DNA of 64,000 nucleotides from an uncultured Bacteroidales bacterium (GCA_947039275.1 CAMQYL010000001.1:36889-100888); one strand, 5' to 3'; shown: positions 31,331 to 51,829, numbered from the stretch's first letter. Program-made: numbers and translations. The notes: a model not told the origin generated them from the sequence alone.

Positions 31331-33066
31331 CAGCATCCTCACGCACACCATATCTCGTAGGCAAAGCTTTCCGCAGCTTTCTTCTCGCTTCGGTACTGAC
31401 TGCCGCAGCCTCGCAGGTGGGAGCGTTGATTGACGGACTGATGCTCAGCCGCTTCATCAACGAGGAGGCGATGAGTGCCATCAACATCACCTCCCCTGTC
31501 ACGCAGGCTCTCTTTGCCCTGTGCATCCTCATAGGTGTAGGAGGGTCGATGCTCGCTGGCATAGCCATCGGCAACCACCGTAAGGATGAAGCCTCAGGCA
31601 TCTTCTCTGTGGTCATAACCACGGCTGTCACGCTCGGCATAGTGCTCGGCATAGCCGGGATGGTGTTCCTCACGCCCCTGCTGCACCTGCTCTGCCCCGA
31701 TGCTTCGCTTCAAGGGTACACCTCGCAATATCTTGTCGTGATCCTCCCTGCCTCGGCTATATATATGCTGATGGTGGTGGCGCAGATGTTTGTGACCCTT
31801 GACGGCGAACCGCGACGTGTCACTGCCGCGGTGACTACCTGCATGGTGGTCAAACTGACGCTCGACTACATCTTCATAGTGTGGTGTGGTTGGGCGATGA
31901 CAGGTGCGGCTATCGCCACAGTCATCAGCTACTTAGGCTCTCTGTGTGTCCTGTTTCCACATTTCCTAAAAAAAGAGGCTCTACGATACACCTTGCCCCG
32001 TACCATACGCCAGTTGGGCCGCATTGCCTCCATGGGTCTGCCTTTCGGCATCGCCACAGTTCTGATAGCCGTGCAGATGCTCGGCAACAACCTTGTGGCA
32101 ATCAACTACCTCGGAGCCGCCGGCATAGTCACGCTGTCGATATGCATGTATCTGCTGCGATTTTCAATGATTATCCTCACGGGGACGCTTGAATCGTTTC
32201 AGCCCGTCGCTGCCATACTAAAAGGCTCCGGTGATAACCATGGCGTAGCACTTGTGCTCGGCAGAGCCTACCGGTTTCTGGCAGTCAGCCTCTCGGTGCT
32301 TGCCCTCATACTGATAATCTTCCCGGGTTGGATTGCCGACCTGTTTGGCATCGATGATGCTGCCTCGATGGCGATGCTCCATGTGGCACTCCCGGCATAT
32401 GCAGTCAATATCATACTCCAGTGTGCCGTATATCTGCTGATACCTGTCTATCAGATATACAGCCATAAAAACATGGCTCTGATTATCTCGTTCGGACAAC
32501 CGTTGATGCCCATGGTGTGCTACTGGCTGCTGTCGGCTGCCGTCGGCGCAGGATATGCCTGGATCAATCCGTGGTGGGGCTTCGCCATCGGGCAGCTCGT
32601 TGTGGTGTTGATACTCGCTCCATTTGCACTTACACGCAAAGGCGACCACAAGCCGTTTGTACTCATCCCGACCGACAATCCCGACGAACTCTTTGACATA
32701 TCAGTGACACCTGCCATCGACCGTATGGAAGATGCCATAGTAGAAGCGGACGAATGGATGCGCACACAGAGCTTACCAGAGCAGCTGCGTCTGCGCGTTG
32801 GACTGGCATGTGAGGAAAGCATCAAGAATATCATACAGCATGCCCTCGGCAAAAAGGCACAGCACTCAGCGATAGACATGCGCATAGCTCTGTCAGCCGA
32901 CAAAGTGACGGCTGTTATCCGCGATGAAGGCACCCCTTTCAACCCCGTGGAACAAGATCCTGGCACCGGGCTCGGCTTGATGCTCGTCCGCAAAACCTGC
33001 GACGACCAAAAGTACGAGTACCTCTTCCACCAAAACATCCTCACCATCGAGTGGCAGCGCAAATAA
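31327..33066 (+). CDS. MATE/MOP-family efflux transporter fused to a C-terminal RsbW-like HATPase domain
   Basis: 579 aa. About 440 aa are polytopic and MATE-like (..LMLSRFINEEAMSAINITSPV..). The last roughly 130 aa (..LACEESIKNIIQHAL..VIRDEGTPFNPVE..GTGLGLMLVRK..KYEYL..) are paralogous to the C-terminus of the 21463-23742 product. The ATGA overlap with the NRPS stop is at 31327-31330. Confidence 0.75.
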   Translation: MTASSRTPYLVGKAFRSFLLASVLTAAASQVGALIDGLMLSRFINEEAMSAINITSPVTQALFALCILIGVGGSMLAGIAIGNHRKDEASGIFSVVITTAVTLGIVLGIAGMVFLTPLLHLLCPDASLQGYTSQYLVVILPASAIYMLMVVAQMFVTLDGEPRRVTAAVTTCMVVKLTLDYIFIVWCGWAMTGAAIATVISYLGSLCVLFPHFLKKEALRYTLPRTIRQLGRIASMGLPFGIATVLIAVQMLGNNLVAINYLGAAGIVTLSICMYLLRFSMIILTGTLESFQPVAAILKGSGDNHGVALVLGRAYRFLAVSLSVLALILIIFPGWIADLFGIDDAASMAMLHVALPAYAVNIILQCAVYLLIPVYQIYSHKNMALIISFGQPLMPMVCYWLLSAAVGAGYAWINPWWGFAIGQLVVVLILAPFALTRKGDHKPFVLIPTDNPDELFDISVTPAIDRMEDAIVEADEWMRTQSLPEQLRLRVGLACEESIKNIIQHALGKKAQHSAIDMRIALSADKVTAVIRDEGTPFNPVEQDPGTGLGLMLVRKTCDDQKYEYLFHQNILTIEWQRK

Positions 33067-35731: not shown

Positions 35732-36622
35732 TCACTTGACAGGTGTCACGGTGTAGCCGGCGTTCTGCAATGCCTTGATCAATCCGTTGTCGCCCACGAG
35801 ATGTCCTACACCCACGGCTACAAACACCTTGCTGTTAGGGAGGATATTGGTGGTCAGTTTCTGCACCCATGCAGCATTGCGGTTGTCAAACAGACGCTTG
35901 AACATCGGATCTTCGGGGTCGAAATCCTCATCCTTGAAAAGGACATCGGATATGACATCCAGATTTTCGGTCATGTAGGCATCAGCCAGTCTCTTGGCTT
36001 TCTCGCCGCTCTCGCTGTCGTTACGCACAGATTCCATGAGGTCGTCTACCTGGTCCATGATGGGAGCGTTCATCAGCACGTCAAACTGTTCTTCCATAGT
36101 CTCAAGTCCCTTGACAGGCTTGTTGGCAGCCTTTACGCGCTGCTGGATCTGAGTGTCAAGCTGCTCCATGGGGTTGAAGTTGGGGAAATTTTTCGCGCTC
36201 TGGAGCATGGCGAGCTGTGTCGACACCATTGCAGGCTTGAAAGCGTCGAGTTGCGCGGCGTTGAGCATGCCGCCGGTATAAGATGCGAGCAGAGAGTTGA
36301 GCGAGTCGAGCTGCGCTGCGGTCATCACCTTGGTCAGCGTAGAGTCAGCAGGAGCGGAAGCATATTTCATTGTAAGCTGCACCATCTCAGGCGACTGGGG
36401 ATTTTCGGGCATCTCCACTTCGCCGTACATCTCCTCCACCGAAGCGAGAGCCGGTGCAAAACCGCTGATGCTGTCCATCACCGAGGCAGGAGCCAGATGG
36501 TGTGTGCCGAAGAGGTAGCTGTCACCCTTTGCATCCTTGCCGCTGACGCGCCACAGGAGTTGGGCATTGGCACTACCGAGACCTACGAGAAGTGTTGCGA
36601 TGATAAGAGCTGTCTTTTTCAT
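35732..36622 (-). CDS. TraB/GumN family protein
   Basis: Signal peptide MKKTALIIATLLVGLGSANA, then LLWRVSGKDAKGDSYLFGTHHL... and C-terminal VAVGVGHLVGDNGLIKALQNAGYTV. The ATG at 36622 is preferred over 36682. Confidence 0.75.
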   Translation of the reverse strand: MKKTALIIATLLVGLGSANAQLLWRVSGKDAKGDSYLFGTHHLAPASVMDSISGFAPALASVEEMYGEVEMPENPQSPEMVQLTMKYASAPADSTLTKVMTAAQLDSLNSLLASYTGGMLNAAQLDAFKPAMVSTQLAMLQSAKNFPNFNPMEQLDTQIQQRVKAANKPVKGLETMEEQFDVLMNAPIMDQVDDLMESVRNDSESGEKAKRLADAYMTENLDVISDVLFKDEDFDPEDPMFKRLFDNRNAAWVQKLTTNILPNSKVFVAVGVGHLVGDNGLIKALQNAGYTVTPVK

Positions 36623-36859
36623 TTCTGTCTTTTTTTGAGTTTTATTTGGAATATTGTTGATTGATTTTATCGTTGTTCTCATGTAGTGATGTAGCAGTGT
36701 GCATCACTATCACGCTGCAAATGTACGGCAATTTTCCCAATTACCAAATTTTATCGCAATTTTTTTGAAAAAAATTTCTGCGAGATACGGATTTCCGTAA
36801 TATAACTCATATAATTCTTATAATTTGAGCATAAGCATGGCGATTATCCGACAAATCAT

Positions 36860-36867
36860 TAACTTTG
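36860..36867 (+). promoter_or_regulatory. candidate -7 box (TAACTTTG) for regulator A
   Basis: TAnnTTTG match 61 nt upstream of the ATG. Box, spacing and flanks are conserved with 49509-49516. Confidence 0.4.
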
Positions 36868-36875
36868 TCCCTGGT

Positions 36876-36902
36876 TGTAGGGACATGCCGTGGCATGTCC
36901 GC
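36876..36902. repeat. single REP unit (type 1) in the predicted 5' leader of regulator A
   Basis: TGTAGGGACATGCCGTGGCATGTCCGC. Confidence 0.8.
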
Positions 36903-36927
36903 TTCCCAGCCCCGTCAGTCACACCCG

Positions 36928-38568
36928 ATGAAATACCTTGCTATCTTCATAATCGCAATCGCAGCGCTGTCGGTGTCGTGCGGCAGACACGCCGCCACCG
37001 AGGCAGTCATTGACCGCGCCGACTCACTGATGACTGAGCATCCCGACTCGGCTCTGACACTGCTCAGTGCCATCGACGGCTCAGCCCTGCCCCTCGGTTC
37101 GGAGCTTAACGCCCGCTATGCCCTGCTGCTGACTCAGGCACAGGCAAAGTGCTTCAAGACCCCAGCTGACGATTCGCTCATATCCATAGCTGTTGACTAT
37201 TATACACGCCACGAAGACCTGCTGCAGCTGACCAAGGCGCATTTCTATCGCGGGAGCGTGCAGTACAAAGCCAAACATTACGCCAAGAGCCTGATGTCGA
37301 TGTTTCAGGCTCTGGAGCTGGCGCGTGAAGTGGAGTCCGATTTCTGGATGGGGCTTGCGAGCCGCGGAGTCGCCGACGTGTATCTCGCCACATATAACGG
37401 AGAGGAGGGAGTGCGATACGCACAGAAAGAATACGAGCACTTCCGTCGCGACAAAACCCAGCCATACCTAAATTACGCACTCTTAGATCTCTCAAGAGCC
37501 TACAATAACTCATGTAGATACAAGGAATCCATACCTATCTGCCGACAAGTTGTTGACTCAGCCCGTAAGCATGATGACCCATATCTTGAGCATGAAGCAT
37601 GGGGAACAATGGGACGTTCACTGATGGGAGCACAAAGATATGCAGAGTCAGCCAAAGCGTTTGAAAAAGTTTGCGTGTCAGAATACGCCACTGCCGAAGA
37701 CTCATCATACCTTGCAACCATGTATGCAAAATCCGATCGCTTGGATAAAGCCATTGATTTATATCATGCAATAGGAAACCGAGACACTACCCTCCAGCTT
37801 GACTGGCTGAAATTTGAGATATATGTACGCATTGATTCTCCATATCGTGCCATAAAATCCCTTTTAAAACTTGACACCGAACATAATGACATTATAGAAA
37901 ACCGCATAAGCATCGATCTTACGACATCGCTGCTTGATTATCATACCAATCTTCGACAGGAAGCAGAGCGTTCACGCGATCTTTCATACATGTTTATCGG
38001 CGCCATGACCATAATAGGTCTGCTGATTGCCTTTATTATTTATGTGTGGATCAAGCGGTATCGGCAGCGGCAAAAGGAAAAGATAGAGCAAGGATTGGCA
38101 ATGGTACAGTCTCTGAGCGATTCGCTACAGACCAAATCATCAGAGTGCATACAAAACCGCCAGCTTATCCATACCCTGCTCCGCAAGAAATATGTCCTGT
38201 TTGACCAACTGTGCCGTCAGGTATATCCCCGACAGGACATCGAAGCTACCAACCGGCAGCTCTATCAGACCATCACGGACTTCGTAAAAGAAATCCAGGG
38301 CAATGAAACAAAAACCGATGAATTGGAGGCGATGGTCAATCAGCATATGTCGGGTCTGATGACTGATTTCAAAGCGGATGTCCCCAAAGCCAACAAGACC
38401 GATGCCAAGCTGTTCCTGTTTTCAGTCTTAGGCTTCTCAGACACAGCCATCGCCATGTTTCTCGGCAAAAAGCAGGTAAGAGCCGTCTACGATTCGCGCC
38501 GCCACCTCAAAGACAAAATCAAAGACTCCGGCTGTCCCAACCCCGACCGCTACATCCAATACCTATAG
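36928..38568 (+). CDS. membrane-spanning regulator: lipoprotein signal + TPR-like periplasmic domain + TM + coiled coil + C-terminal LuxR/GerE-like HTH (paralog A)
   Basis: MKYLAIFIIAIAALSVSCG lipobox, a helical-repeat region of about 340 aa, TM MFIGAMTIIGLLIAFIIYVWI (about 37984-38052), and C-terminal ..LFLFSVLGFSDTAIAMFLGKKQVRAVYDSRRHLKDKI... The architecture is shared with 49581-51242. Confidence 0.65.
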   Translation: MKYLAIFIIAIAALSVSCGRHAATEAVIDRADSLMTEHPDSALTLLSAIDGSALPLGSELNARYALLLTQAQAKCFKTPADDSLISIAVDYYTRHEDLLQLTKAHFYRGSVQYKAKHYAKSLMSMFQALELAREVESDFWMGLASRGVADVYLATYNGEEGVRYAQKEYEHFRRDKTQPYLNYALLDLSRAYNNSCRYKESIPICRQVVDSARKHDDPYLEHEAWGTMGRSLMGAQRYAESAKAFEKVCVSEYATAEDSSYLATMYAKSDRLDKAIDLYHAIGNRDTTLQLDWLKFEIYVRIDSPYRAIKSLLKLDTEHNDIIENRISIDLTTSLLDYHTNLRQEAERSRDLSYMFIGAMTIIGLLIAFIIYVWIKRYRQRQKEKIEQGLAMVQSLSDSLQTKSSECIQNRQLIHTLLRKKYVLFDQLCRQVYPRQDIEATNRQLYQTITDFVKEIQGNETKTDELEAMVNQHMSGLMTDFKADVPKANKTDAKLFLFSVLGFSDTAIAMFLGKKQVRAVYDSRRHLKDKIKDSGCPNPDRYIQYL

Positions 38569-38645
38569 CACCCTCACCACCAAAATAGAGAGTGTTGCAA
38601 AACCACCAATCCACCTTCTTGTAGGGACGCGGCACAATGCTGTCT

Positions 38646-38925
38646 GCTTAAGATTATTTCGCTTGTAAAGGCGCGGCGTAGCCGCGGCAGGAGTAGTAGC
38701 CACATGCAAGCAAGTCGTCAGACTTGTGAAGCTTGTGGTCTATAGTCCCCCATCATATCCCGGCGGCGTCAGCTGCCGGGGCTGATGCATGCGATTGCCC
38801 CGGCAGTTACACCGCCGGATTTCCATTAGATCCGTTTTCCACAAGCTACGCAAGTCTGACGACTTGCTTGCATGTGGCTACTACTCCCCTCGCGGCTAAC
38901 ACCGCGAGCGTTAAGAATAAAGGGT
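38646..38925. repeat. large nested inverted repeat (about 50-bp near-perfect arms)
   Basis: GGAGTAGTAGCCACATGCAAGCAAGTCGTCAGACTTG at 38690-38726 pairs with CAAGTCTGACGACTTGCTTGCATGTGGCTACTACTCC at 38851-38887. There is an inner hairpin CCCGGCGGCG...CGCCGGG-like and flanking small hairpins. Confidence 0.75.
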
Positions 38926-38954
38926 GTTGCAGAACTCAAAAAACACGCCGCAAA

Positions 38955-39036
38955 TTGTAGGGATGCACCCTGGTGCATCCGCCAACACACTGATAATCAG
39001 TCCATGGATTTCGGCTGCGCCATGGTACATCCCTAC
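38955..39036. repeat. REPIN-like doublet (type 4 stem GGATGCACC/GGTGCATCC; right unit degenerate)
   Basis: TGTAGGGATGCACCCTGGTGCATCCGC ... GCGCCATGGTACATCCCTACA. Confidence 0.65.
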
Positions 39037-39061
39037 AATTTAGAATTATGCAACACACTCA

Positions 39062-39352
39062 GCCGTGTGTAACTCCAGACACGGTGGATACGTCTCCGAC
39101 GTGACTATGGCCTCCGTGGGAGGCACACATGTTAGGCAGTGGTAGGGCTGGTTGTAGGTCAGCTTTACCACTGTACAAGACGCATCCCCCAAACAATCCG
39201 TCGCTGTAGGCGGCGCACCTTGACGGCACGGGGCTGTGCGCCTCCTACGGAGGTGTTTTTGGAAGGGGGCGGATGTCGGCACAGTGGTCATCCCAGCCTA
39301 CAGCTTGGCTGACCACTGCCTAACATGCCGGCCTCCTACGGAGACCAGCAGC
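39062..39352. repeat. large nested inverted repeat with internal GTAGG-type units
   Basis: CATGTTAGGCAGTGGT (about 39131) pairs with ACCACTGCCTAACATG (about 39311). There are several GCCTCC(G/T)(T/A)(G/C)GGAGG hairpins, and ACGTCTCCGACGT is shared with the 20273-20674 element. Confidence 0.65.
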
Positions 39353-39532
39353 TGATACCTATAAAAACGACTTGGCAAACGGCTTCACTAACCCACTATA
39401 TATCAGTCGGTTAAAATATCGCCAACTTGGCAAGAAAATTTTCTTTACAACACGCTGATTACCAGCAATTTAAAAATCAAGGTTGCCAACTTTTTTCGCC
39501 CCGAAAATTTGGCTGTCCCATTCCAAGCACCG

Positions 39533-39540
39533 TAACTTTG
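39533..39540 (+). promoter_or_regulatory. candidate -7 box (TAACTTTG) for cassette A structural genes
   Basis: TAnnTTTG match 25 nt upstream of the 39565 ATG. Confidence 0.4.
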
Positions 39541-39564
39541 CCGCAAAATCATCTCACCCACGTT

Positions 39565-39933
39565 ATGAAAACATTCGTCACATCAATCATCTTAGCACTG
39601 TCGCTGATATCAATCTCAATAATATGCCACGGAGGTGAATCAGATACAAAGACAGGAGCAGCAGGTAGAGTAAATAAACCCGAATCCAATCGACCGACAG
39701 CCCCCTCTCATGCGTATATATATTTCACATACACGAGAGGACACATAGATTTCACACTCAGCACCACCATGGAGTACATCGATATCATCATTAGCAAAGA
39801 TGACATCCCCATATGGTCAGGCACGGTCACACAAGACGAGCCATCCGCCGACCTACCCATCCTCTATGGTGAACACACCATCGCATGTATCACCGAAAAC
39901 GGGCACGTCTATCTCGGCTATCTGGATTTCTAA
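39565..39933 (+). CDS. small secreted protein, DUF3244-like (paralog A)
   Basis: 122 aa from the internal ATG, with signal peptide MKTFVTSIILALSLISISIIC. The C-terminal block DDIPIWSGTVTQDEPSADLPILYGEHTIACITENGHVYLGYLDF is nearly identical to the 51440-51820 product. Confidence 0.7.
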   Translation: MKTFVTSIILALSLISISIICHGGESDTKTGAAGRVNKPESNRPTAPSHAYIYFTYTRGHIDFTLSTTMEYIDIIISKDDIPIWSGTVTQDEPSADLPILYGEHTIACITENGHVYLGYLDF

Positions 39934-40005
39934 AGGATACACAACAACGATAAAATGAGATTCAATCTCATCTATTCTTTATTTTCTAACTAATTTTTCT
40001 ATCTT

Positions 40006-40215
40006 ATGAAGACATTAAAAGACGTAATGCCTGAATGTAATCTCACGTCAGAGGAGATTTCCGCCATTGCTGGTGGACGGCGACAGGATGTGAACACACT
40101 TCGTCAGGATCCATTTCAACAAGCAGACGGATGCTATACGGGCATTTGCTCACAGAAGCTCAACCCTAAATTTTGTGAAGGTGGTGCAATATGCACCTCT
40201 GGCATAGCTGGATAA
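40006..40215 (+). CDS. RiPP-type precursor peptide with double-glycine leader (cassette A)
   Basis: 69 aa. The leader ...LTSEEISAIAGG fits the L(-12)..E(-8)(L/I)(-7)..I(-4).G(-2)G(-1) consensus. The 45-aa core RRQDV...DGCYTGICSQKLNPKFCEGGAICTSGIAG has 4 Cys. The stop is 5 nt before the rSAM start. Confidence 0.75.
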   Translation: MKTLKDVMPECNLTSEEISAIAGGRRQDVNTLRQDPFQQADGCYTGICSQKLNPKFCEGGAICTSGIAG

Positions 40216-40220
40216 GCAAC

Positions 40221-41711
40221 ATGAGCACCTGCAACGAACCAAAAATCGTGTTTAATCATGCTTATTATATTAAGCATGATGAAAAGAGATGCTTAGTTAT
40301 TTCGCAACCCTCACGAGAATGGAGTAATTGCATGGAAGGATGGATTTCAAAAATCCATCCTATCTATGCAATGATTCTGTCTCTTCTATCAGAACCAGTG
40401 TCAAAACAGGAAGCAATAGCACAAGCAGCTGCTTTCTTAGATGTCAATGATTCTGTGGCTACAGAACTAATAGAAAAACTGATGGAGTCAAAAGAACCAT
40501 TTGAAATGGATTTCGACAACTCAGTGAGCTGGTTTCCGCCCTCTATAATTCTTGAAGTCCCGTCAGATTCAATCCCATCAATACCAATAGTATACGAGCC
40601 ACAACAGTTTTGTTACGACAGCATTGATTTGACGGCACAGAGACTTATCCAAAGTCCTATAGGCATAGTATGGATGATCAACAATATATGTTTGACCGAG
40701 TGTGAATATTGCTATGCTGACAAATCTACCAAATCATCTTCATTAAATCTGTCCGAAGTGACAGAGATGTTAGATGACATATCACATAACAATATCAAGA
40801 GCTTTCAGATAGTCGGGGGAGAATTTTTCAGATATCAAAACTGGAAAGAGTTGTTGAAACTGCTCAAATCATACAATCTGCTTCCTGAACTCGTCTCTAC
40901 TAAAATGCCTTTATCAGCCGATGACATTGCAATAATAGGCGAATATGGTATACAGATACAGGTCTCGCTTGATTCTTTCAATCCTGACACTATCGCTTCT
41001 ATGTGGAGGGTAAAATCTGATTATCTATATCGAATCATAGATACAATACGTTTATTGGATAAGTACAACGTAAGATATCAGATTGCTACAGTCCTTACCA
41101 AATCCAATTCTTCAAATGAGGAACTGACATCCTTGAGCAAATTTTTAGCCACATTAGAAAACCTCAAAAGATGGGAGATACGTGTAGCATTTCGTTCTTT
41201 ATACAGCAGAAAATCGTTTGATACAATCAAACTATCTCCAAATGAAATCACGGAGGTAGACAAAATCGTCAAATCCATTATGGATACTTTCCCTAAAAAT
41301 ATACTTTGGGTTAAGGATTCGGGTCGTGAGTATTTCACGGCAAAGGAAGGTAGTCGTAGCTTCAATGGATCACGATGCTCTGCTAATTATTCCCATATGG
41401 TAGTTCTTCCTGACGGCAAGGTTACAATCTGTGAGCAGTTATATTGGGCTAAACGATTCATAATCGGGGACATAAAGCTGCAATCCATTAGAGATATTTG
41501 GAACAGTCCCGAAGCTCTACATCTCGCTAAATATCCACAATCATGTGTTCAGGCCAAAAGTCCTTGCCATGATTGCAAGTTGTATGATGATTGCCAGTTG
41601 TTTCCCAACAAATGCTATGCCGACACGATAAAGGCATACGGATGGGACAACTGGGATTATCCAGACCCGAGATGCGAGAAAGGTCTGCCATTTCTTCATT
41701 CTTTATCATAA
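40221..41711 (+). CDS. radical SAM/SPASM peptide maturase with about 155-aa N-terminal extension (possible RRE)
   Basis: 496 aa. The CxxxCxxC motif is CLTECEYC (nt 40689-40712). The C-terminal Cys-rich SPASM-like region is ..GSRCSANYSHMVVLPDGKVTICEQ...CVQAKSPCHDCKLYDDCQLFPNKC... The N-terminal segment IHPIYAMILSLLSEPVSKQEAIAQAAAFLDVNDSVATELIEKLMES resembles PqqD-like recognition elements. Confidence 0.85.
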   Translation: MSTCNEPKIVFNHAYYIKHDEKRCLVISQPSREWSNCMEGWISKIHPIYAMILSLLSEPVSKQEAIAQAAAFLDVNDSVATELIEKLMESKEPFEMDFDNSVSWFPPSIILEVPSDSIPSIPIVYEPQQFCYDSIDLTAQRLIQSPIGIVWMINNICLTECEYCYADKSTKSSSLNLSEVTEMLDDISHNNIKSFQIVGGEFFRYQNWKELLKLLKSYNLLPELVSTKMPLSADDIAIIGEYGIQIQVSLDSFNPDTIASMWRVKSDYLYRIIDTIRLLDKYNVRYQIATVLTKSNSSNEELTSLSKFLATLENLKRWEIRVAFRSLYSRKSFDTIKLSPNEITEVDKIVKSIMDTFPKNILWVKDSGREYFTAKEGSRSFNGSRCSANYSHMVVLPDGKVTICEQLYWAKRFIIGDIKLQSIRDIWNSPEALHLAKYPQSCVQAKSPCHDCKLYDDCQLFPNKCYADTIKAYGWDNWDYPDPRCEKGLPFLHSLS

Positions 41712-41728
41712 TCTTAACAGTCTATATA

Positions 41729-43810
41729 ATGAAAACCAGAATTATCATATTGACGAGTATCCTATCTTTCATCATCAACATTGACGCTTTCGCGCAAGGG
41801 GAGCAGAGTGACACTCTGCGGCTGGGGGAGGTGACTGTCAGGGCAGCGCAGCAGTATGTGACGGCGGATGCTGTGGTTTATGTGCCGACTAAGGCTGACA
41901 AGAGGGATGCGCAGAGTGCGGTGGATCTGCTGCGGATGTCGGCTATACCGCAGATTAAGGTCAATCCAGTGGATGACAAAGTGACTGACAACTTCGGCGA
42001 GGATGTCAGCATATTTCTCAATTATCTCCCGGCTGGTAAGGAAGACATTTCCGGGCTTAAAACATCGGATGTGAAGAAAATCGAATATCTCACCTCCCCA
42101 ACCGATCCGCGGTTCAGAGGCGCAAAATCGGTCATAAATATCATCGTCACCGAATACGCATATGGCGGTTACACCAAACTTTCATCCACGCTACGCACTA
42201 TCAGCGACATCTCCGGAGGCGTGGATGTCTACAGCAAATTCGCATACAAACGGATGACTTTTGACCTGTATGCCGCGCTTAAAGAGTCATCGACACACCA
42301 CTCAGGCACATCCAACGATGACCGATACACCGTTGCCGACGGTATCGTCACAAGAAAGGAGACTCCCCAATCGTCTTACCTGCGTGACAGCCGTTATCCC
42401 ATCACCTTCCGCGCCACCTACAATGCACCCACCATGCAGCTGAGCAACGCTGTGGCATTTTCACATACAGCCACACGAGCCAATGACGAAAGCGGACTGA
42501 TAGATTATAATGGAGGAGCATACGGCACAACCACAGAAGCATACCGAAGATATGAGCCTGACATGTCAAACTCGGCGATGTTCTTAGGGTCTTATTATTT
42601 CGAGCTACCCAAAGGCTGGGCATTAAGCATCGTCCCTCAGCTCTCCTATTCACACTACACCGACAATCTCGGCTATTACGTCACTGACTCATCGCCGATT
42701 ATCAGAGACATAGCCGAAGATGCCACCAGCGGAGCCATTGACGGATATTTAGAAAAGACTTTCGGACAATCACATTCGCTCATACTCGGAGTCTCTTATG
42801 AAAATGAGCATAACACCCTCCATTATATCAGAGAAAACAGCAAAGAAACAATCACCTATGATGCCGTAGACGGCTATGCCGGTTACACGTTCAGCAAAAA
42901 CGGATTGACAGCATCTATCGAAGGAGGCATGAAATGGGACAAATCCAAAGCCGGAGACAGCAGCGACCATAGTATTTCGCCGTTTGTCGACTGTGATTTA
43001 CGCTACAGCCCCGATACAAGAAACATGTTCTCCGCAAGCATACGGTATAAGACGACACCTCCTGCGTCCTTTCAGAAAACATCAGCGATATTGCTGGAAA
43101 ACGAGTTTCTATACGTCACAGGCAATGCGTCGCTGAAAAACGACCGACAACTCACAGCCAATCTTGGATACTCATACATCCCGTCAAACCTCATCACATT
43201 AAGCGGATATGCAAGCTATCGCGGAATCTATGACCGAATAACCGAATCATATGCGCCTTACGCAGAGGGGACAAGGCTCCTGCGCACATATGCCAACGAC
43301 GGACGTTACGACCGCATCATGGCAGGTGTATCGCTTTTTTGGAAACCGTTGGACGGAAAGCTCGTAGTCAGTTCTTCGCCAGGATTTGCCCACTATCAGA
43401 TCAGCGGACCTGTGGCAAGATGTTACAACGCATTCCAATTCAACGCCTCCGTCAGAGGAAGCCTGTCGAATTTCTATGCCTCCGCGTCTTTCAAACTCCA
43501 AAGCCGTGAATTAGCCAGTTCAAACAATGCCATATGGAAAGACCGTGACTACTATTCCATCGAAGCCGGCTGGGCAAATGACAATCTAAACGTCCGCCTC
43601 AACGCAGCCAACCTGTTCAATCGCGGATGGGTAAGCATAACCCAGGATATGGAGAGCGAGCTATGCTCCTATTACCGCACATACTACGGCAGCACATACC
43701 ATACCACTCTGTCACTGAGCGTCACCTACACCATCGGTTACGGCAAAAAAATCACCCGCCGCAACGAGATAGGTGAACTCAACCAATCCAGCTCAGCCAT
43801 AATGAAATAA
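41729..43810 (+). CDS. TonB-dependent-receptor-like outer membrane beta-barrel protein (OMP_b-brl_3-like)
   Basis: 693 aa from the internal ATG, with signal peptide MKTRIIILTSILSFIINIDAFAQ and plug-like ..LRLGEVTVRAA...KKIEYLTSP... It is the most divergent member of the family. Confidence 0.7.
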   Translation: MKTRIIILTSILSFIINIDAFAQGEQSDTLRLGEVTVRAAQQYVTADAVVYVPTKADKRDAQSAVDLLRMSAIPQIKVNPVDDKVTDNFGEDVSIFLNYLPAGKEDISGLKTSDVKKIEYLTSPTDPRFRGAKSVINIIVTEYAYGGYTKLSSTLRTISDISGGVDVYSKFAYKRMTFDLYAALKESSTHHSGTSNDDRYTVADGIVTRKETPQSSYLRDSRYPITFRATYNAPTMQLSNAVAFSHTATRANDESGLIDYNGGAYGTTTEAYRRYEPDMSNSAMFLGSYYFELPKGWALSIVPQLSYSHYTDNLGYYVTDSSPIIRDIAEDATSGAIDGYLEKTFGQSHSLILGVSYENEHNTLHYIRENSKETITYDAVDGYAGYTFSKNGLTASIEGGMKWDKSKAGDSSDHSISPFVDCDLRYSPDTRNMFSASIRYKTTPPASFQKTSAILLENEFLYVTGNASLKNDRQLTANLGYSYIPSNLITLSGYASYRGIYDRITESYAPYAEGTRLLRTYANDGRYDRIMAGVSLFWKPLDGKLVVSSSPGFAHYQISGPVARCYNAFQFNASVRGSLSNFYASASFKLQSRELASSNNAIWKDRDYYSIEAGWANDNLNVRLNAANLFNRGWVSITQDMESELCSYYRTYYGSTYHTTLSLSVTYTIGYGKKITRRNEIGELNQSSSAIMK

Positions 43811-43913
43811 AACCCATCGCCACAGCAGCAATATAGACTGTAATATGCTGGCAATCAATGCAATATCTTTAAAATTCCACATTCATAGTCATAATCGCCT
43901 GATTTACAGCCAA

Positions 43914-44096
43914 ATACAGCCTATATTCATAAAAATACTAAAATTAAATTTTCATATCCTCGCAATATCCTTATTATCAATTAGTTACAAAGCACAAAAG
44001 CCAAATAATTTTTCCGTCAAAATAAGCAACAAACGAAAAATAGGCTCTAATTTTGCAGTTTGACATTCATTATTTTTCATCACATTCAGTAATCCG
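43914..44096 (+). promoter_or_regulatory. repeated promoter/leader cassette, copy 1 (upstream of barrel gene 44097)
   Basis: Contains ATACAGCCTATATTCATAAAAATACTAAAATTAAATTTT, AAAGCCAAATAATTTTTC (43997-44014), the -7 box TAATTTTG (44048-44055) and the leader ...TTTTCATCACATTCAGTAATCCGATG. About 80 percent alignable by eye with 46413-46594. Confidence 0.55.
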
Positions 44097-46277
44097 ATGC
44101 AGTTACGTTTCTTTTTATTTGCAGTGGTGCTTACGGCGGAGGCAGTGACAGTCTGCCATGCGCAGGTTGATGTTGATTCTATCGTTGCGGTCTATGAGAG
44201 GGAGCTGGCACTTGACGAGGTCACGGTGACGGCTCAACGCAAGAGCACGAAGGTAATCCGTGGCGGTATATCCTACGACATGGCAGGGAACAAACTGGCT
44301 GACGGGATGTCGATGGCTGACGCTATCAAATTCGTGCCGCTTGTGGCTCCTACGCCTGGGGGTGGCGTGAGCGTGACAGGGAGCAAGCCGGTGAAACTGT
44401 ATCTCAACGGCAATCCGTGGAACATCGCAGCAAGCGATCCTGCCGGGGCGTTGGCGAGTCTCCCAGCCAATTCGGTGGCAAAAGTAGAGGTAATCCTCTC
44501 GGGCGACATCCGCTATCCCGAAGCGCGTGGATATGCCGTGATTGACGTATATACAAAGCAGCGGCTTCTTGACCACTACAATCTATATGCCCGGCTCGTC
44601 GGGGAGACGATGCCTCGCGGCGAGGGGAACATCGCCGCCGACTTCGCCAAAGGAAATGTCACACTCTCGGCTTCATATCTCTACGATGTCGACCGCCAGA
44701 ACAACCAACGCGCCACATGGACGAGCGCATTCCGCTCTCCCCTCTCCGCCCCGCTCTCGGCACGGCGAGAGATGGACGACGGCACCGGCACATGGCAGAG
44801 CCACCTGGGAAGCCTCATGGCGACATGGCAGGCAGACACCCTCAACACGCTCTATGCCGACGTACATGTGTTGGCAAAAATCCAGCATTTCAACACCACA
44901 TGGCACGAAACAGCAGACCTGCATATGCCAGAGGGCATCGTGACTAATGAATATTTTGACCACAACAGGGACTACAACAATTTCACAAAATTAGAGACCA
45001 ACATAATCTGGCAGAATCATCGCCCCTCCGACCGCTCTGAGCGATGGAAAGTAGGTTACCGCTACACATTTGACCCCGATACGCGCTCATATGACGTAGA
45101 AAGCACGACCGGCAATGACTTGTCAGCCCCACAGATCGCCGAAGGAAAAACCCGCGGCAAGCAGCACAACCATCTGCTGTCGGGAATCTACACCCATCCC
45201 ATCAATCACAACAACCGCATCCAAGCCGCCATATGGCAGACCCTGCGATATGGCAGAGCCAAATATCTCATACCCGATACTGGCGAATGGGACACCGACC
45301 TCCGCTACGATTACGCCATCACGGAGGCAGCCATGGCATACAGCGGCAGCTACGGCAAAGTCAATCTCTACGCCTCTGCCGGCATGGAATATGCCCATAC
45401 CAATCTCCGTTACTACGACAGCGACAAGCGGCGTTACGATTATTGGTCGTTAGTGCCATCGCTCTCAGTGGGCTATGCCATCAGCCGCAGCAGTAACATC
45501 AGCCTCAATTACGATTACAGCGTCAAGCGTCCCGACATCATGCAGCTCAACCCATTTGCCGAGTATATTAACCGTCACGGCTGCACCCAGGGCAATCCAT
45601 CGCTGCGTCAGTCGGGCATACACAATGTGCAGTTGTCGTGGTTTAAGATGTGGCAGAAATTCATGGTATCAGCAAGTGCCTCCTACAGCCACGCCACGCA
45701 TCCCATCATGCTGATGCCGACAGAGTCCCTGTCAGACATCTATGTAATGCTATCACGTTACGCCAACATTGACCGCTCCGACATGGCAGGGCTGTCAATA
45801 TTCGGTCGCTTGACCATCCGCAACGGCATGTACCTGTCACTCAACGCCTCCGGTTCGCGCCAATGGCTCCATGATGCAGCGAGTTCACTGTCGCAAAGCA
45901 GCTATGGAGTCAACGTCTACGCCTCCTACGATGCCTCTTTCAGGCATGACTGGGCAGTAGGGGCAAGTTACGGCTACTTCAAAAACCATCCCGAGCCGTT
46001 CACATCCGTCAACTCCATGTACATCAACGATTTCAAGGTCAGAAAAGGATTCCTTGACCGCAGTCTCAACATAGAGCTGGCTCTCAGCATGCCGTTTTCA
46101 CGTCACCGCAAAATATCCCGCACAGTCACCCTCCCGACCGCAGAGATGACCCAGACCAACTGGGCGACAGCCCGCTCCCTGCGTCTGACCCTCTCCTACC
46201 TCCTCGGCGGCAAAGTCTCCAAAGTGAAGCGTGACCGCTCCCTCAACACCACCGACATCACAACCGGCATCGAATAA
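44097..46277 (+). CDS. TonB-dependent-receptor-like outer membrane beta-barrel protein (OMP_b-brl_3-like)
   Basis: 726 aa with signal peptide MQLRFFLFAVVLTAEAVTVCHAQ, ..LALDEVTVTAQRK.., and the family motif ..KRPDIMQLNPFAEYINRHGCTQGNPSLRQS... Confidence 0.8.
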   Translation: MQLRFFLFAVVLTAEAVTVCHAQVDVDSIVAVYERELALDEVTVTAQRKSTKVIRGGISYDMAGNKLADGMSMADAIKFVPLVAPTPGGGVSVTGSKPVKLYLNGNPWNIAASDPAGALASLPANSVAKVEVILSGDIRYPEARGYAVIDVYTKQRLLDHYNLYARLVGETMPRGEGNIAADFAKGNVTLSASYLYDVDRQNNQRATWTSAFRSPLSAPLSARREMDDGTGTWQSHLGSLMATWQADTLNTLYADVHVLAKIQHFNTTWHETADLHMPEGIVTNEYFDHNRDYNNFTKLETNIIWQNHRPSDRSERWKVGYRYTFDPDTRSYDVESTTGNDLSAPQIAEGKTRGKQHNHLLSGIYTHPINHNNRIQAAIWQTLRYGRAKYLIPDTGEWDTDLRYDYAITEAAMAYSGSYGKVNLYASAGMEYAHTNLRYYDSDKRRYDYWSLVPSLSVGYAISRSSNISLNYDYSVKRPDIMQLNPFAEYINRHGCTQGNPSLRQSGIHNVQLSWFKMWQKFMVSASASYSHATHPIMLMPTESLSDIYVMLSRYANIDRSDMAGLSIFGRLTIRNGMYLSLNASGSRQWLHDAASSLSQSSYGVNVYASYDASFRHDWAVGASYGYFKNHPEPFTSVNSMYINDFKVRKGFLDRSLNIELALSMPFSRHRKISRTVTLPTAEMTQTNWATARSLRLTLSYLLGGKVSKVKRDRSLNTTDITTGIE

Positions 46278-46412
46278 CCCACTCCCAACAACAAAAATAT
46301 ACAAACATACCACCACATCAAACCTGAATATAGATTATAAACTGCTATAAATCACCAATATAGACCCAAAGATAATAAGAAATCGGTCTTAACAGCTTGA
46401 TTATCAGATAAA

Positions 46413-46594
46413 TACAATCTATATTTTCAAAAAGACTAAAAATAAAATTTTGCACTTTCATAACTCTCTAATTTTAAGCACATTACAAAGCGCAAAAGCC
46501 AAATGATTTTTCTCTCAATATCAGCAAGAAACGGAAAATATGCTCTAATTTTGCAGTTTGACATTAATTAATTTTCATCACATTAAATAATCCG
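46413..46594 (+). promoter_or_regulatory. repeated promoter/leader cassette, copy 2 (upstream of ABC exporter)
   Basis: TACAATCTATATTTTCAAAAAGACTAAAAATAAAATTTT, AAAGCCAAATGATTTTTC (46495-46512), -7 box TAATTTTG (46546-46553), and leader ...TTTTCATCACATTAAATAATCCGATG. Confidence 0.55.
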
Positions 46595-48820
46595 ATGCAC
46601 TTTCCATACCACCGACATCGAATGAACATGTTGCGCAGGTTTCCTTGGGTGATGCAGAAGGATGCGATGCAGTGTGGCATCGCATGTCTGGCTATGGTGT
46701 GCCGACACTACGGCAAGGCTTATTCGCTGGCTGCGCTGTCGGAGATATGTTTCGCCACGGTGCAGGGGGTGTCGCTGCTGGGGCTTAAGGAGGCGGCGGG
46801 GAAGCTCGGCTTTGATACAGCGGCTCTGCGGCTGTCGGCGCAGAGCCTTGCCGACAAGCCGCTGCCGTGTATCCTCCACTGGAATCAGGAGCACTTCGTG
46901 GTGCTCTACAAGGTACGTCGAGGACGCTATTATGTGGCAGACCCGGGCAAAGGACTCGTCAAGTACACCGAGGAGGAGTTTTGCAAGCACTGGTGCAGTA
47001 CGTGTGCCGACGGAACGGATAAAGGCATAGCCTTGATGCTCCAGCCCAACGCCGACTTCGGCAAAACCATGTCGGAGGGCAGCGGCGAACGCCGTTCGTT
47101 CCGCTTCCTGATGGGTTATCTGCGGCAATACCGCCGCTATTTCACCCAGATCATCCTCGGATTGCTCGTGGGCTGCGTGTTGCAGCTCATCATGCCGTTT
47201 ATGACGCAGTGGATTGTGGATATAGGCATCAAGCACCAGGACATTGGCTTCATATGGCTTGTGCTCCTCGGCGAACTGATGATAGTGACCGGACGCACCG
47301 CCACCGACTTCATACGCCGCTGGCTGCTGCTCCACATATCCATGCGCATCAACATCTCGCTCATCAGCGACTTCTTCATCAAGCTGTTGAAGCTGCCCAT
47401 GTCGTTTTTCGACACCAAACTGATGGGCGACCTTCTGCAGCGCATCGGCGACCACTCGCGCATCCAGTCGTTCCTGACCAACCAGACCCTCAGCGTGGTG
47501 TTCACATTCCTCAGTTTCATCATCTTCGGATTCGTTCTTCTCATTTACGATGTTCTGATTTTTGGGGTGTTTATCATCGGCAGCGGCATCTATGGCGCGT
47601 GGATAGCGACATTCCTGAAGCGGAGAAAGGTGATAGACTACGAGCTGTTTGAGCAGCAGGCACGTAACCAAAACAAAGTATACCAGTTCATCACCTCCAT
47701 GCAGGAGATCAAGCTCCAGGACTGCGAGCAGCGGCGACGCTGGGAGTGGGAGGATACCCAAGCCGACCTCTTCGACGTGCAGATGAAGTCGCTGCGCCTC
47801 CAGCAGACCCAGGAAGCCGGCTCCATCTTCATCAACGAGGTCAAGAACATCGTCATAACCGTCATAGCAGCCACCGCCGTCATCAACGGCGAGATGACAC
47901 TCGGAGCCATGCTCGCCGTGCAGTATATCATAGGGCAGCTCAATTCGCCCGTAGAGCAACTGATGACATTCGTCTACTCACTCCAGGATGTGAAAATATC
48001 ACTCGAGCGCATCAACGAAATCCACGAAGGCAAAAACGAGGAGAGCGACGACCGCCAGCTCACGGCAATCACCCGACCCGACAAATCAATCACCATCGAC
48101 GGCATCGACTTCAAATATGACCCGCATGCGCTCCGCAAGACCCTCGACGGCGTGACATTCACCATACCCGAGGGCAAGGTAACCGCCATAGTGGGCGCAT
48201 CGGGCAGCGGCAAAACCACCCTTATCAAGCTGATGCTCGGCTACTACAAGGTCTCGGCAGGACGCATCGCCATAGCCGGGCATGACATCAACGAGTACAA
48301 TCCGCGCTGGTGGCGCCGGCAGTGCGGAGTAGTGATGCAGGACGGCGTAATCTTCTCCGAATCCATAGCCCGCAACATCGCCGTAGACGATGGCGAGATA
48401 GACGTAGAGCGGCTCGAACGGGCAGCCCGCATAGCCAACGTCCACGACTATATCATGGGCTTGCCCCTCAAATACAACACCCTCATAGGGCGCGACGGCG
48501 TAGGGCTGAGCCAAGGGCAGAAACAGCGCATACTCATAGCACGCGCCGTATATAAAAACCCCGACTACATATTTCTCGACGAAGCCACCAACTCGCTCGA
48601 TGCGCGTAACGAGCGCGTCATAGTCGAGAACCTTGCCGAATTTTACCGGGGCAGAACAGTCGTGGTCGTGGCTCACCGCCTCTCCACCGTCAGAGATGCC
48701 GACCAGATAATAGTCGTCGACGGCGGACGCATCGTGGAGCAAGGCACGCACACCTCCCTCACCAACCAAAAAGGAGTCTATTACAATCTCGTCAAAAATC
48801 AACTTGAATTAGGCAACTGA
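46595..48820 (+). CDS. peptidase C39 domain-containing ABC transporter (double-glycine leader cleavage/export)
   Basis: 741 aa. C39 motifs QKDAMQCGIACLAMV, ..HWNQEHFVVLYKV.. and VADPGKG. Six TM helices. Walker A GASGSGKTT, signature LSQGQKQR, Walker B IFLDEAT. The start is ambiguous (46595, 46622 or 46628). Confidence 0.92.
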   Translation: MHFPYHRHRMNMLRRFPWVMQKDAMQCGIACLAMVCRHYGKAYSLAALSEICFATVQGVSLLGLKEAAGKLGFDTAALRLSAQSLADKPLPCILHWNQEHFVVLYKVRRGRYYVADPGKGLVKYTEEEFCKHWCSTCADGTDKGIALMLQPNADFGKTMSEGSGERRSFRFLMGYLRQYRRYFTQIILGLLVGCVLQLIMPFMTQWIVDIGIKHQDIGFIWLVLLGELMIVTGRTATDFIRRWLLLHISMRINISLISDFFIKLLKLPMSFFDTKLMGDLLQRIGDHSRIQSFLTNQTLSVVFTFLSFIIFGFVLLIYDVLIFGVFIIGSGIYGAWIATFLKRRKVIDYELFEQQARNQNKVYQFITSMQEIKLQDCEQRRRWEWEDTQADLFDVQMKSLRLQQTQEAGSIFINEVKNIVITVIAATAVINGEMTLGAMLAVQYIIGQLNSPVEQLMTFVYSLQDVKISLERINEIHEGKNEESDDRQLTAITRPDKSITIDGIDFKYDPHALRKTLDGVTFTIPEGKVTAIVGASGSGKTTLIKLMLGYYKVSAGRIAIAGHDINEYNPRWWRRQCGVVMQDGVIFSESIARNIAVDDGEIDVERLERAARIANVHDYIMGLPLKYNTLIGRDGVGLSQGQKQRILIARAVYKNPDYIFLDEATNSLDARNERVIVENLAEFYRGRTVVVVAHRLSTVRDADQIIVVDGGRIVEQGTHTSLTNQKGVYYNLVKNQLELGN

Positions 48821-48824
48821 CACC

Positions 48825-49025
48825 ATGGCATCAGACAACGAAAAAATAGAGCTGCGCAGCGAGAAAGTCCGCCACCTCATCTCCGAAATCCCCCCGGCAC
48901 TCGTCCGCTGGGGCATCGCCATCATAGCCATAATCACCGCCGCCCTCCTCCTCGCCGTCTGCCTCCTCCCCTATCCCTACTCCGCCGGCGAATCCATCCT
49001 CCGCCACCTCCTCGACTCGATATAG
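48825..49025 (+). pseudogene. truncated HlyD-family periplasmic adaptor (N-terminal 66 aa only)
   Basis: MASDNEKIELRSEKVRHLISEIPPALVRWGIAIIAIITAALLL... matches the N-terminal cytoplasmic tail plus TM of Bacteroidetes HlyD adaptors that follow C39-ABC genes, which are normally about 400 aa. The frame ends at 49025, and the 49113-49353 inverted repeat begins 88 nt downstream. Confidence 0.5.
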
Positions 49026-49112
49026 TCCCCAGAGGCGGAAATCATATAGACGACGCGATACAATGGTGTGCATTTAAGATATATCGTATCAAATCGGATG
49101 AATAAGCATGTC

Positions 49113-49353
49113 GGAAGTCCCGAAGGGATGAGCCTATACTTAACCGTGGATGAGGATATGGCATAGCCATGACGAGTCCACGGTGGGACAAAGAGAAAGA
49201 TGTGAGTCCTGGAGGGACGGATTTGTGGTGGATACGCTACCATAAACTCGTCCCTCCAGGACTTGGTCTTTAGTGTGCCTTGCGCCGTGGACTCGGACGG
49301 CTATCGCCGCCGCTCATCCACGGTTAAGCATAGGCTCATCCCTCCGGGACTTC
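49113..49353. repeat. about 240-bp near-perfect nested inverted repeat (MITE-like)
   Basis: GGAAGTCCCGAAGGGATGAGCCTATACTTAACCGTGGATGAG pairs with CTCATCCACGGTTAAGCATAGGCTCATCCCTCCGGGACTTC. Inner pairs are GAGTCCACGG/CCGTGGACTC and GAGTCCTGGAGGGACG/CGTCCCTCCAGGACT. Confidence 0.8.
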
Positions 49354-49508
49354 TATGGTGTTTATCTATTATTTTGCATTGTTTTGACATGCACACGCAT
49401 CAAATTACCAAATCGTTAATTGAACAGCATTGTGACGCACGAGGTTACGGTTTCTATATTTTCAGCGCATACATTTGCTGAATCATTGTGATTGACGGGG
49501 CTTTTGTG

Positions 49509-49516
49509 TAACTTTG
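49509..49516 (+). promoter_or_regulatory. candidate -7 box (TAACTTTG) for regulator B
   Basis: TAnnTTTG match in the same context as 36860-36867. Confidence 0.4.
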
Positions 49517-49524
49517 TTCCCCGT

Positions 49525-49551
49525 TGTAGGGACATGCCATGGCATGTCCGC
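49525..49551. repeat. single REP unit (type 1) in the predicted 5' leader of regulator B
   Basis: TGTAGGGACATGCCATGGCATGTCCGC. Confidence 0.8.
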
Positions 49552-49580
49552 TTTCCCAGCCCCGACCAGTCACACTCCAG

Positions 49581-51242: not shown

Positions 51243-51415
51243 TAAATCCATGTCAATCAACATATTAGCAATAAATGCCTGATATTCAACACATTAAGAG
51301 AAAGCCAAAAAATTTTTTCATGTTTACTCATAATTCATTGACATTCAATCTATTACAAATTTGAAAAGCCAAACGAAAAACAGGCAAAAATTCGTTCTGT
51401 AGCCTCTTTTTGACA

Positions 51416-51423
51416 TAACTTTG
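51416..51423 (+). promoter_or_regulatory. candidate -7 box (TAACTTTG) for cassette B structural genes
   Basis: TAnnTTTG match 17 nt upstream of the 51440 ATG. AAAGCCAAAAAATTTTTTC at 51301-51319 resembles the cassette motif. Confidence 0.4.
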
Positions 51424-51439
51424 CACAAAAACATGGCAC

Positions 51440-51820: not shown

Positions 51821-51829
51821 GAGCGGCAT

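Follow-up and report, generated by a model that had tools for sequence, protein, structure and literature searches.

Radical S-adenosylmethionine (rSAM)-modified peptides with double-glycine (GG) leaders were reportedly described from Bacteroidales by Haft and Basu in 2011, as a system for which we take TIGR04149 to be the precursor model, TIGR04148 the rSAM enzyme and TIGR04150 the pseudo-rSAM protein. These three models represent GG-leader Bacteroidales peptides that adjoin rSAM/SPASM proteins (PMC4573289; PMC8939145), and a 2023 mining study reports two in-silico Bacteroidales biosynthetic gene clusters (BGC1 and BGC2) with an rSAM enzyme, a GG-motif precursor, a peptidase-containing ABC transporter (PCAT), an outer-membrane protein (OMP) and a tetratricopeptide repeat (TPR) gene, neither with a product known from experiment (PMC10352776). 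A membrane-fusion protein (MFP) is, according to the same study, often lacking in such Bacteroidales clusters (PMC10352776). Here we analyse a stretch of 64,000 nt from an uncultured Bacteroidales bacterium (GCA_947039275.1, CAMQYL010000001.1:36889-100888), herein referred to as the window and numbered from its first nucleotide, and within it a small open reading frame (ORF) at 40006-40215 on the plus strand. We consider it likely, with good though not complete confidence, that this ORF encodes the precursor of a RiPP (a peptide of ribosomal origin with post-translational modifications) that is modified by the adjacent rSAM enzyme and cleaved and exported by a PCAT. Support for this reading comes from conserved gene order, family-wide linkage of precursor, rSAM enzyme, OMP and exporter, an intact C39 peptidase triad in the transporter and a maturase fold that joins a putative RiPP recognition element (RRE) to rSAM and SPASM domains.

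The precursor gene and its family

The ORF runs from ATG 40006 to TAA 40213-40215 and encodes 69 aa: a 24-aa leader (codons 40006-40077, plus strand; MKTLKDVMPECNLTSEEISAIAGG) and a 45-aa core (codons 40078-40212). The core begins with a variable linker of 18 aa (residues 25-42) and ends in a conserved segment, CYTGICSQKLNPKFCEGGAICTSGIAG (40132-40212, plus strand), whose four cysteines (residues 43, 48, 57 and 63) are invariant or nearly so by alignment columns and cysteine-spacing statistics; a fifth, Cys11, lies in the leader. A GG leader of a PCAT substrate is expected to show GG (or GA/GS) at positions -2/-1, hydrophobic residues at -4, -7 and -12, an acidic residue at -8 and a length of about 15-30 aa, and that of the window peptide carries L(-12), E(-8), I(-7), I(-4), G(-2) and G(-1), with Glu rather than a hydrophobic residue at -15. 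A preliminary description of the locus had quoted an identical translation, a 45-aa core with four cysteines, these same leader residues (all correct on recount from Gly24) and a 5-nt gap to the enzyme gene, and each of these agrees with our analysis (stop codon, 5 nt, ATG 40221). Its core spacing of C-x4-C-x9-C-x5-C was miscounted, as cysteines 43, 48, 57 and 63 give C-x4-C-x8-C-x5-C, and the second, internal GG to which it drew attention does exist (E58-G59-G60) but belongs to a core motif of partial conservation, in surroundings unlike those of a leader, and has no feature that would single it out as a cleavage site. When the leader motif was scanned for in six frames over the whole window, it returned the precursor ORF and two unrelated minus-strand ORFs (46098-46316, with three nested starts, and 22530-22739); a stricter motif returned the precursor ORF and two minus-strand ORFs on overlapping DNA, and nothing else in the window.

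The stretch 40006-40215 is a real gene rather than a chance ORF, because it has orthologues, a paralogue, family-wide synteny and a profile family of 122 clusters, and its assignment as precursor draws on the ORF check, the orthologues and two family alignments (A2 and A3, below). A search of 5.8 billion protein clusters gave only two of close homologues, whose identities are 94% and 83%. The nine contigs that carry close homologues (L001-L009) keep the order of regulator, 122-aa gene, precursor, rSAM, OMP and PCAT, and three of them (L007-L009) encode a second, paralogous precursor, MKKLKDIVPSCILKATELYTITGG / RHDNQTLRHRQTKEDHGCATAIGRISKCEGGPICVVNMTD, in which the leader is the same and a C-E-G-G-x-I-C motif is present. 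Compared with the homologue P0002, the window peptide is conserved in its leader and in its last 27 residues, where all changes are conservative (L/I, P/T, F/Y, I/V), and the 18-residue linker after the GG is divergent. Synonymous and nonsynonymous differences number 6:5 against L001 and 11:11 against L007, too few to carry a claim of selection on their own. Neighbouring window proteins have near-identical copies named Candidatus Amulumruptor sp. or Muribaculaceae bacterium at NCBI, and the genomic context is that of TIGR04149-type peptides, namely a Bacteroidales (Muribaculaceae) peptide with an rSAM/SPASM gene 5 nt downstream.

Beyond these close relatives, the enzyme served as the guide to the wider family. 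It has 889 homologues at E <1e-5, of which the best 120 are 38-51% identical, except for two close orthologues. Contigs of species-representative genomes (one genome per species) yielded no relative when scanned with the single rSAM protein, but an alignment-based scan found relatives at 283 places; the highest identity there is 46%, and hence no close relative of the window cluster came up among the species representatives. We fetched 79 of these 283 loci, most of them labelled Bacteroidales (among them Bacteroides, Phocaeicola, Parabacteroides, Segatella, Muribaculaceae and Tannerellaceae); cultivable carriers of the family include Parabacteroides distasonis (L033), Segatella copri (L032) and Phocaeicola sartorii (L048). 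Upstream of the enzyme gene, 260 nt or more of DNA is available at 72 loci, and at 64 of these a small ORF that has a leader of GG type and two or more cysteines stands just before the enzyme gene. PCATs were sought by tblastn in flanks of about 9 kb and were found at 53 of the 79 loci, many of whose contigs are truncated. Downstream, an ORF of at least 550 aa starts within 400 nt of the enzyme gene in 34 of the 65 loci with enough DNA on that side; a few of these are the PCAT itself, and 8 of 10 sampled match OMP_b-brl_3, often together with CarboxypepD_reg, TonB-receptor barrel or Plug domains. These linkage counts argue for a canonical cassette of GG precursor, rSAM/SPASM enzyme, TonB-receptor-like barrel and PCAT. 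The preliminary description had regarded homologous loci without a conserved ORF at this position as evidence against the gene, and had read the spacing of the two genes as precursor-maturase coupling; on both points the 64 linked loci, along with the conserved order in the sister contigs, speak for the gene and for the coupling.

The peptides themselves are held together by their leader and their cysteines. The same description had suggested aligning homologous peptides to see which cysteines are invariant, and in such an alignment of 22 precursors (A2) Gly24, Cys43, Cys57 and Cys63 are invariant and Gly23 and Cys48 at least 90% conserved. A profile built from the window peptide and its database relatives (A3) matches 122 clusters at 50% identity (E <=1e-3, among 1.84 billion representatives), nearly all of 40-110 aa. 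Among 112 members that could be split at the GG, the dominant cysteine spacings are 4-10-4, 4-10-5, 4-8-5 (the type of the window peptide), 4-10-4-4 and 4-10-6; the closest peptides share the pattern C-x4-C-x8-11-C-x4-6-C, and the sequence pattern of the closest subtype is D-G-C-x-[TS]-G-[IV]-C-S-x-K-[IV]-N-[PT]-x-[FY]-C-x-G-G-A-[IV]-C-T-S-G-I. The internal GG is part of C-x-G-G-A-[IV]-C in this closest subtype, and AGA, DA or DGDG stands in its place in other relatives. Two parts of the leader are conserved across relatives, K-[LF]-x-D-[LIV] at the N terminus and, from -12 to -1, the GG motif L-x3-E-[IL]-x2-I-x-G-G, and we infer that the former would be the recognition element for the enzyme and the latter that for the C39 peptidase.

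Upstream of the precursor, at a distance of 35 nt from its ATG, is a perfect 7-bp palindrome (ATGAGAT-TCA-ATCTCAT, 39955-39971), which is retained in L001, occurs in L007 with a G-U-compatible change and does not occur in distant loci. We rejected it as an RNA structure, its fold energy being no better than that of shuffled sequences (z -0.15), and dropped it as a family feature, since it is conserved in the closest contigs only; it could be a protein-binding site.

The predicted maturase, the exporter and the proposed pathway

The gene at 40221-41711 (plus strand) encodes a 496-aa protein that Pfam matches, alignment, AlphaFold2 modelling and Foldseek searches identify as a predicted rSAM/SPASM peptide maturase with an N-terminal RRE-like domain. 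The start at ATG 40221 agrees with 496-aa gene calls in the sister contigs and with the N-termini of 34 homologues; a longer version from an alternative in-frame ATG at 40191 would overlap the precursor. Its rSAM character is evident from a Pfam Radical_SAM match and from a CX3CX2C motif (C157, C161, C164) invariant among 35 homologues, and its SPASM character from matches to Pfam SPASM (44.8 bits) and TIGR04085 (34 bits, cut-off 27) and from seven cysteines of that region, about the number expected for two auxiliary clusters and also invariant among the 35 (C386, C404, C449, C452, C458, C465 and C485), arranged as C386-x12-G-x4-C404 and C449-x2-C-x5-C-x6-C465. None of the NCBIfam equivalogs comes near its cut-off, the best being NirJ2 (55 bits, cut-off 500). 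An AlphaFold2 model built on the homologue alignment scores well (predicted local distance difference test, pLDDT, 90.8; predicted template-modelling score, pTM, 0.87), with residues 8-113 forming beta strands followed by three helices. In a Foldseek search of the PDB, the RRE-containing RiPP maturases SuiB, SkfB and CteB come first, in this order, then PqqE and anSME, all at 13-16% identity. The alignment to SuiB (5v1q, 5v1s, 5v1t; E 1.5e-16, template-modelling scores 0.60/0.68, about 495 columns) is full length and covers residues 8-113 with the N-terminal RRE; SkfB (6efn) ranks sixth by fold, right after the SuiB chains, and CteB (5why/5wgg) follows. A profile-to-PDB sequence search places SkfB best; for SkfB and SuiB it gives E values of roughly 1e-12 to 1e-10. 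The modelled fold class is clearly that of an rSAM-SPASM RiPP maturase, with a putative RRE at its N terminus.

The exporter gene (46595-48820, plus strand), 6,380 nt downstream of the precursor, encodes a 741-aa PCAT by its Pfam Peptidase_C39, ABC_membrane and ABC_tran matches, with full-length similarity to PCAT1 (4ry2, E 3e-106) and ComA. Its C39 domain (about 46595-47050; Peptidase_C39, 120 bits) looks catalytically competent, because Q21, C27, H100 and D116 align with the PCAT1 motifs (vmQkdamqCgiacl, eHfvvly and vaDpgkg in the window; vrQydltdCgaacl, aHfvviy and vaDpgkg in PCAT1); the entry for the PCAT1 Cys-to-Ala mutant has Ala at the position of the catalytic cysteine. The distance of 6.4 kb between precursor and exporter is due to an additional OMP gene (44097-46277) that intervenes. 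A C39 exporter downstream, as the preliminary description had stated, is thus present, and its pairing with the GG leader appears sound from the intact Cys27/His100/Asp116 and from the PCAT linkage at 53 of the 79 loci.

We hypothesize the following pathway. The N-terminal K-[LF]-x-D-[LIV] part of the leader would probably be bound by the RRE-like N-terminal domain of the rSAM/SPASM enzyme, which would then modify the C-terminal 27-residue core, most likely by installing Cys-derived thioether cross-links that use the four invariant cysteines. The PCAT would recognise the GG motif, cleave after Gly24 by means of Cys27/His100/Asp116 and pump the product across the inner membrane; the TonB-receptor-like barrel encoded beside the enzyme would act at the outer membrane, in export or in re-uptake, and expression may be controlled by the membrane-anchored TPR protein encoded upstream. 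The gene, its conservation, the leader motif, the domains and fold class of the enzyme, the intact C39 triad and the linkage of the genes throughout the family are observed here; which residues are modified and how, cleavage at Gly24, the role of the OMP and the biological activity of the product are predictions. Thioethers are the most likely chemistry because cysteines are the sole invariant residues of the core and because SkfB and CteB are among the nearest folds; since the top structural match, SuiB, makes a carbon-carbon bond, we nevertheless put a thioether of the sactionine or ranthionine type at about an even chance.

Several observations weigh against this pathway. No NCBIfam family is matched by the window peptide at E <=10, and its match to Pfam PF14406 (Bacteroid_pep; 15.3 bits, E 0.024, residues 12-43) lies below the 25-bit gathering threshold. 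For this family, the linker of 18 aa that separates the GG from the conserved core has an unusual length, which could point to a further trimming step. The enzyme shares 13-16% identity with characterised maturases, the best structural match among which, as said, forms a carbon-carbon cross-link rather than a thioether. A full-length membrane-fusion adaptor is not found in the cluster, which has a remnant-like ORF of 66 aa in its stead, and the searchable literature holds in-silico reports and no experimentally characterised member of the family.

Neighbouring genes, the second cassette and alternative readings

Directly after the enzyme gene lies that of a first OMP (41729-43810, plus strand; 693 aa), beta-barrel-like and with a signal-peptide-like N-terminus. 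It has no Pfam match of its own, and pairwise BLASTP against the other two OMPs of the window is not significant; it does share 24-25% identity over about 700 aa with genes that follow the rSAM gene in two Muribaculaceae loci (L031 and L036), and the L036 counterpart matches OMP_b-brl_3. On account of its position and this weak similarity, we assign it as a putative, divergent positional equivalent of the OMP_b-brl_3/TonB-receptor-like gene. The second OMP (44097-46277, plus strand; 726 aa) is a beta-barrel protein with a Pfam match to OMP_b-brl_3 (E 2e-49). It is absent from L001-L006, where the PCAT follows about 300 nt after the first OMP, and it is apparently an addition in the window genome. 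The GC fraction of its gene is 0.53-0.54, against 0.40-0.43 for the precursor and rSAM genes. Directly after the PCAT, a 66-aa protein with a single transmembrane (TM) segment (48825-49025, plus strand) resembles the N-terminal anchor of an HlyD-type adaptor; tblastn matches to it occur in 15 of the 79 related loci, and an ORF of 155 aa at L014:6890-7357 is comparable.

Upstream, the gene next to the precursor (39565-39933, plus strand) encodes a secreted or lipoprotein-like protein of 122 aa, detected by tblastn in 1 of the 79 related loci, with a paralogue at 51440-51820. The C-terminal halves of the two are near-identical (…IPIWSGTVTQDEPSAD…GEHTI.CIT..GH...GYL.F), and neither has a family match. 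Small secreted proteins stand at the same position in L014, L063 and L076, that of L014 being DUF3244-like, and the 122-aa protein bears a weak, sub-threshold resemblance to the DUF3244-type proteins of L014 and L076. Farther upstream, 36928-38568 (plus strand; paralogue at 49539-51242) encodes the candidate cluster regulator, with a lipoprotein-type signal, TPR Pfam matches, a weak BT3442-family match, one TM helix and a hydrophobic C-terminal segment. Its position is conserved in L001-L007 and it is detected by tblastn in 17 of the 79 related loci. No helix-turn-helix model was matched by this protein; from its position and its hydrophobic C-terminal segment we infer that this segment might be helix-turn-helix-like and have a role in DNA binding.

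The intergenic stretch between the regulator and the 122-aa gene (38570-39430) contains several long inverted repeats: one with 60-nt arms that are 92% complementary (38679-38738 / 38839-38898), and others at 39108-39174/39281-39347 and 38952-38981/39012-39041. The corresponding gap is about 300 nt in L001, and the extra 560 nt or so in the window are possibly an insert resembling a miniature inverted-repeat transposable element. An Rfam search of 36000-56000 gave sub-threshold eukaryotic families only, which we take as chance matches. A few kb upstream of the RiPP cluster, 24053-33066 holds a 2,425-aa ORF resembling a nonribosomal peptide synthetase and a 579-aa ORF; counterparts of the genes of this region are found in L007, with Condensation, AMP-binding and PP-binding domains and with MatE and HATPase domains, and not in L001-L004. 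In a different arrangement of the enzyme family, L010 (Porphyromonas pogonae CP143258.1, 8001-17211) has a family rSAM of 43% identity in a cluster that also encodes two glycosyltransferases and a PCAT and that has a DDE transposase directly upstream; no GG peptide was found in the 1.2 kb upstream.

A second cassette (B; 49539-55272, plus strand) follows the one described so far (A) and comprises the paralogous TPR regulator, a 126-aa protein that is the paralogue of the 122-aa protein, an rSAM gene (51830-53101) and a third OMP gene (53068-55272) whose barrel is OMP_b-brl_3. The cassette B rSAM enzyme, of 423 aa, is unrelated to that of cassette A (TIGR04463, 126 bits, cut-off 525), and the 126-aa gene ends 9 nt before it. 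Leader-motif scans of the window found no GG-leader ORF that adjoins cassette B or fits its orientation, whereas a cassette of the same type in L014 has a GG peptide of its own (L014:840-1070). On this account cassette B may be orphaned or may share the cassette A precursor; it may also act on the 126-aa protein.

These membrane proteins bear on what the peptide does once it has left the cell. Rather than an antimicrobial, the mature peptide, made in the same way, could be a ligand, for example an autoinducer or a metal-binding compound, which the producer re-imports or senses, with the OMP as importer and the TPR protein as sensor. The most constant partner of the enzyme is a barrel of the TonB-receptor-like type (OMP_b-brl_3, in many cases with CarboxypepD_reg and Plug domains), both cassettes are flanked by a TPR protein that has a signal peptide and a single TM helix, the four invariant cysteines could bind metal unless all are cross-linked, and Pfam and NCBIfam scans of the cluster recognised no immunity gene. 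Re-import or sensing has no direct evidence, however; GG-leader/PCAT systems classically serve bacteriocins as well as signals, the first OMP of the window lacks a recognisable Plug or Pfam match, and the TPR protein as sensor can be detected in those 17 of 79 loci only. We regard this alternative as possible, if doubtful. A bolder version, in which the clade of rSAM enzymes of about 490 aa, itself without a curated family or a characterised member, installs an undescribed cross-link pattern or chemistry on G-C-x4-C-x8-11-C-x4-6-C-x-S-G and the secreted peptide is re-imported or sensed as a signal or metallophore, strikes us as unlikely.

A different reading dispenses with the modification: a GG leader and a PCAT alone suffice for a class II bacteriocin, four cysteines could give two disulfides, and an unmodified, disulfide-bonded, bacteroidetocin-like peptide might be made while the rSAM enzyme acts elsewhere, for instance on the 122-aa protein, as might be suggested by cassette B, where the gene directly before that of the rSAM enzyme (9-nt gap) encodes the 126-aa paralogue instead of a GG peptide. 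We judge this very unlikely, given that the precursor lies only 5 nt from the enzyme gene, that peptide and enzyme are linked in 64 of 72 loci despite the strong divergence of the peptides, that the enzyme combines an RRE-like domain, of the kind that binds peptides, with an RiPP-maturase fold, and that tblastn detects the 122-aa protein in only 1 of 79 related loci. The use of Gly59-Gly60 as a second C39 cleavage site, which would split the product in two, is more improbable still: most members of the closest 4-8-5 subtype do keep this GG, but it has no upstream pattern of hydrophobic and acidic leader residues, it sits between two invariant cysteines in the most conserved block and relatives of the same cysteine pattern have AGA, DA or DGDG in its place; lacking leader-like context and being replaceable, it offers no reason to expect cleavage. 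That the ORF arose by chance, for which its shortness and the lack of a curated family match might speak, is refuted by the orthologues, paralogue, family-wide synteny and profile family set out above and has practically no probability left.

Significance and comparison with known systems

A modified, exported RiPP being the reading we favour, its interest lies in the setting and in the breadth of the family. Bacteroidales dominate many gut communities, and among the predicted rSAM-modified peptides of Bacteroidales the searchable literature gives none with a determined structure or activity. The family is coherent and widespread, with 283 enzyme relatives in species representatives and 122 peptide clusters, and its short conserved core of 27 residues and its defined parts make it a tractable entry to both the chemistry and the ecological role, be it antagonism, signalling or metal handling. 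For annotation, peptides of the family are mostly uncalled or labelled 'hypothetical', and the TIGR04149 model misses the window subfamily. Should the peptide prove to be taken up again or sensed, a signal or metallophore system would be widespread in gut Bacteroidales.

The locus appears, from its sequence, to be part of a kind already known in silico, within which its sub-family has no curated model. The window shares with the GG-Bacteroidales rSAM system its occurrence in Bacteroidales, a short GG-leader precursor with a variable, Cys-containing core, an adjacent rSAM/SPASM enzyme and a C39 exporter that is often near; in contrast to that system, it has no pseudo-rSAM partner, and the constant partner is an OMP_b-brl_3 barrel. 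Of the curated models, TIGR04149 (GG_sam_targ_CFB) is weakly matched by 10 of the 22 aligned relatives (best E 3.4e-6) and not by the window peptide; the cassette A enzyme reaches 32 bits on TIGR04150 (cut-off 250) and does not have TIGR04148 in its 25 best matches, and the cassette B enzyme scores 54 bits (cut-off 300).

Among characterised enzymes, the sactipeptide and ranthipeptide maturases SkfB and CteB resemble the window enzyme in rSAM-SPASM architecture, with an N-terminal RRE that is putative in the window enzyme, and in having a Cys-rich core as their substrate, which for the window enzyme is the predicted one, at 13-16% identity. Known examples of such maturases come from Gram-positive bacteria. 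SuiB, which makes a Lys-Trp carbon-carbon cross-link in SuiA, is the best structural match, but the core of the window family has no conserved Lys/Trp pair and its invariant residues are cysteines. On the side of export, the substrates of PCAT1, ComA and LahT, the class II bacteriocins and the bacteroidetocins agree with the window peptide in their leaders, which show L(-12), E(-8), I(-7), I(-4) and GG. PCAT1, ComA and LahT substrates are mostly unmodified or lanthipeptides, whereas the window precursor is coupled to an rSAM enzyme; the window system further differs from these in that it belongs to a Gram-negative bacterium and has a barrel of its own, with no TolC/MFP pair in evidence. Finally, BGC1 and BGC2, as described, are like the window in gene content, a likeness of descriptions rather than of sequences (PMC10352776). 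For BGC2 the mining study reports a complete set of PCAT, MFP and OMP, the counterpart of which in the window is a PCAT with its barrels and a 66-aa MFP-like remnant (PMC10352776).

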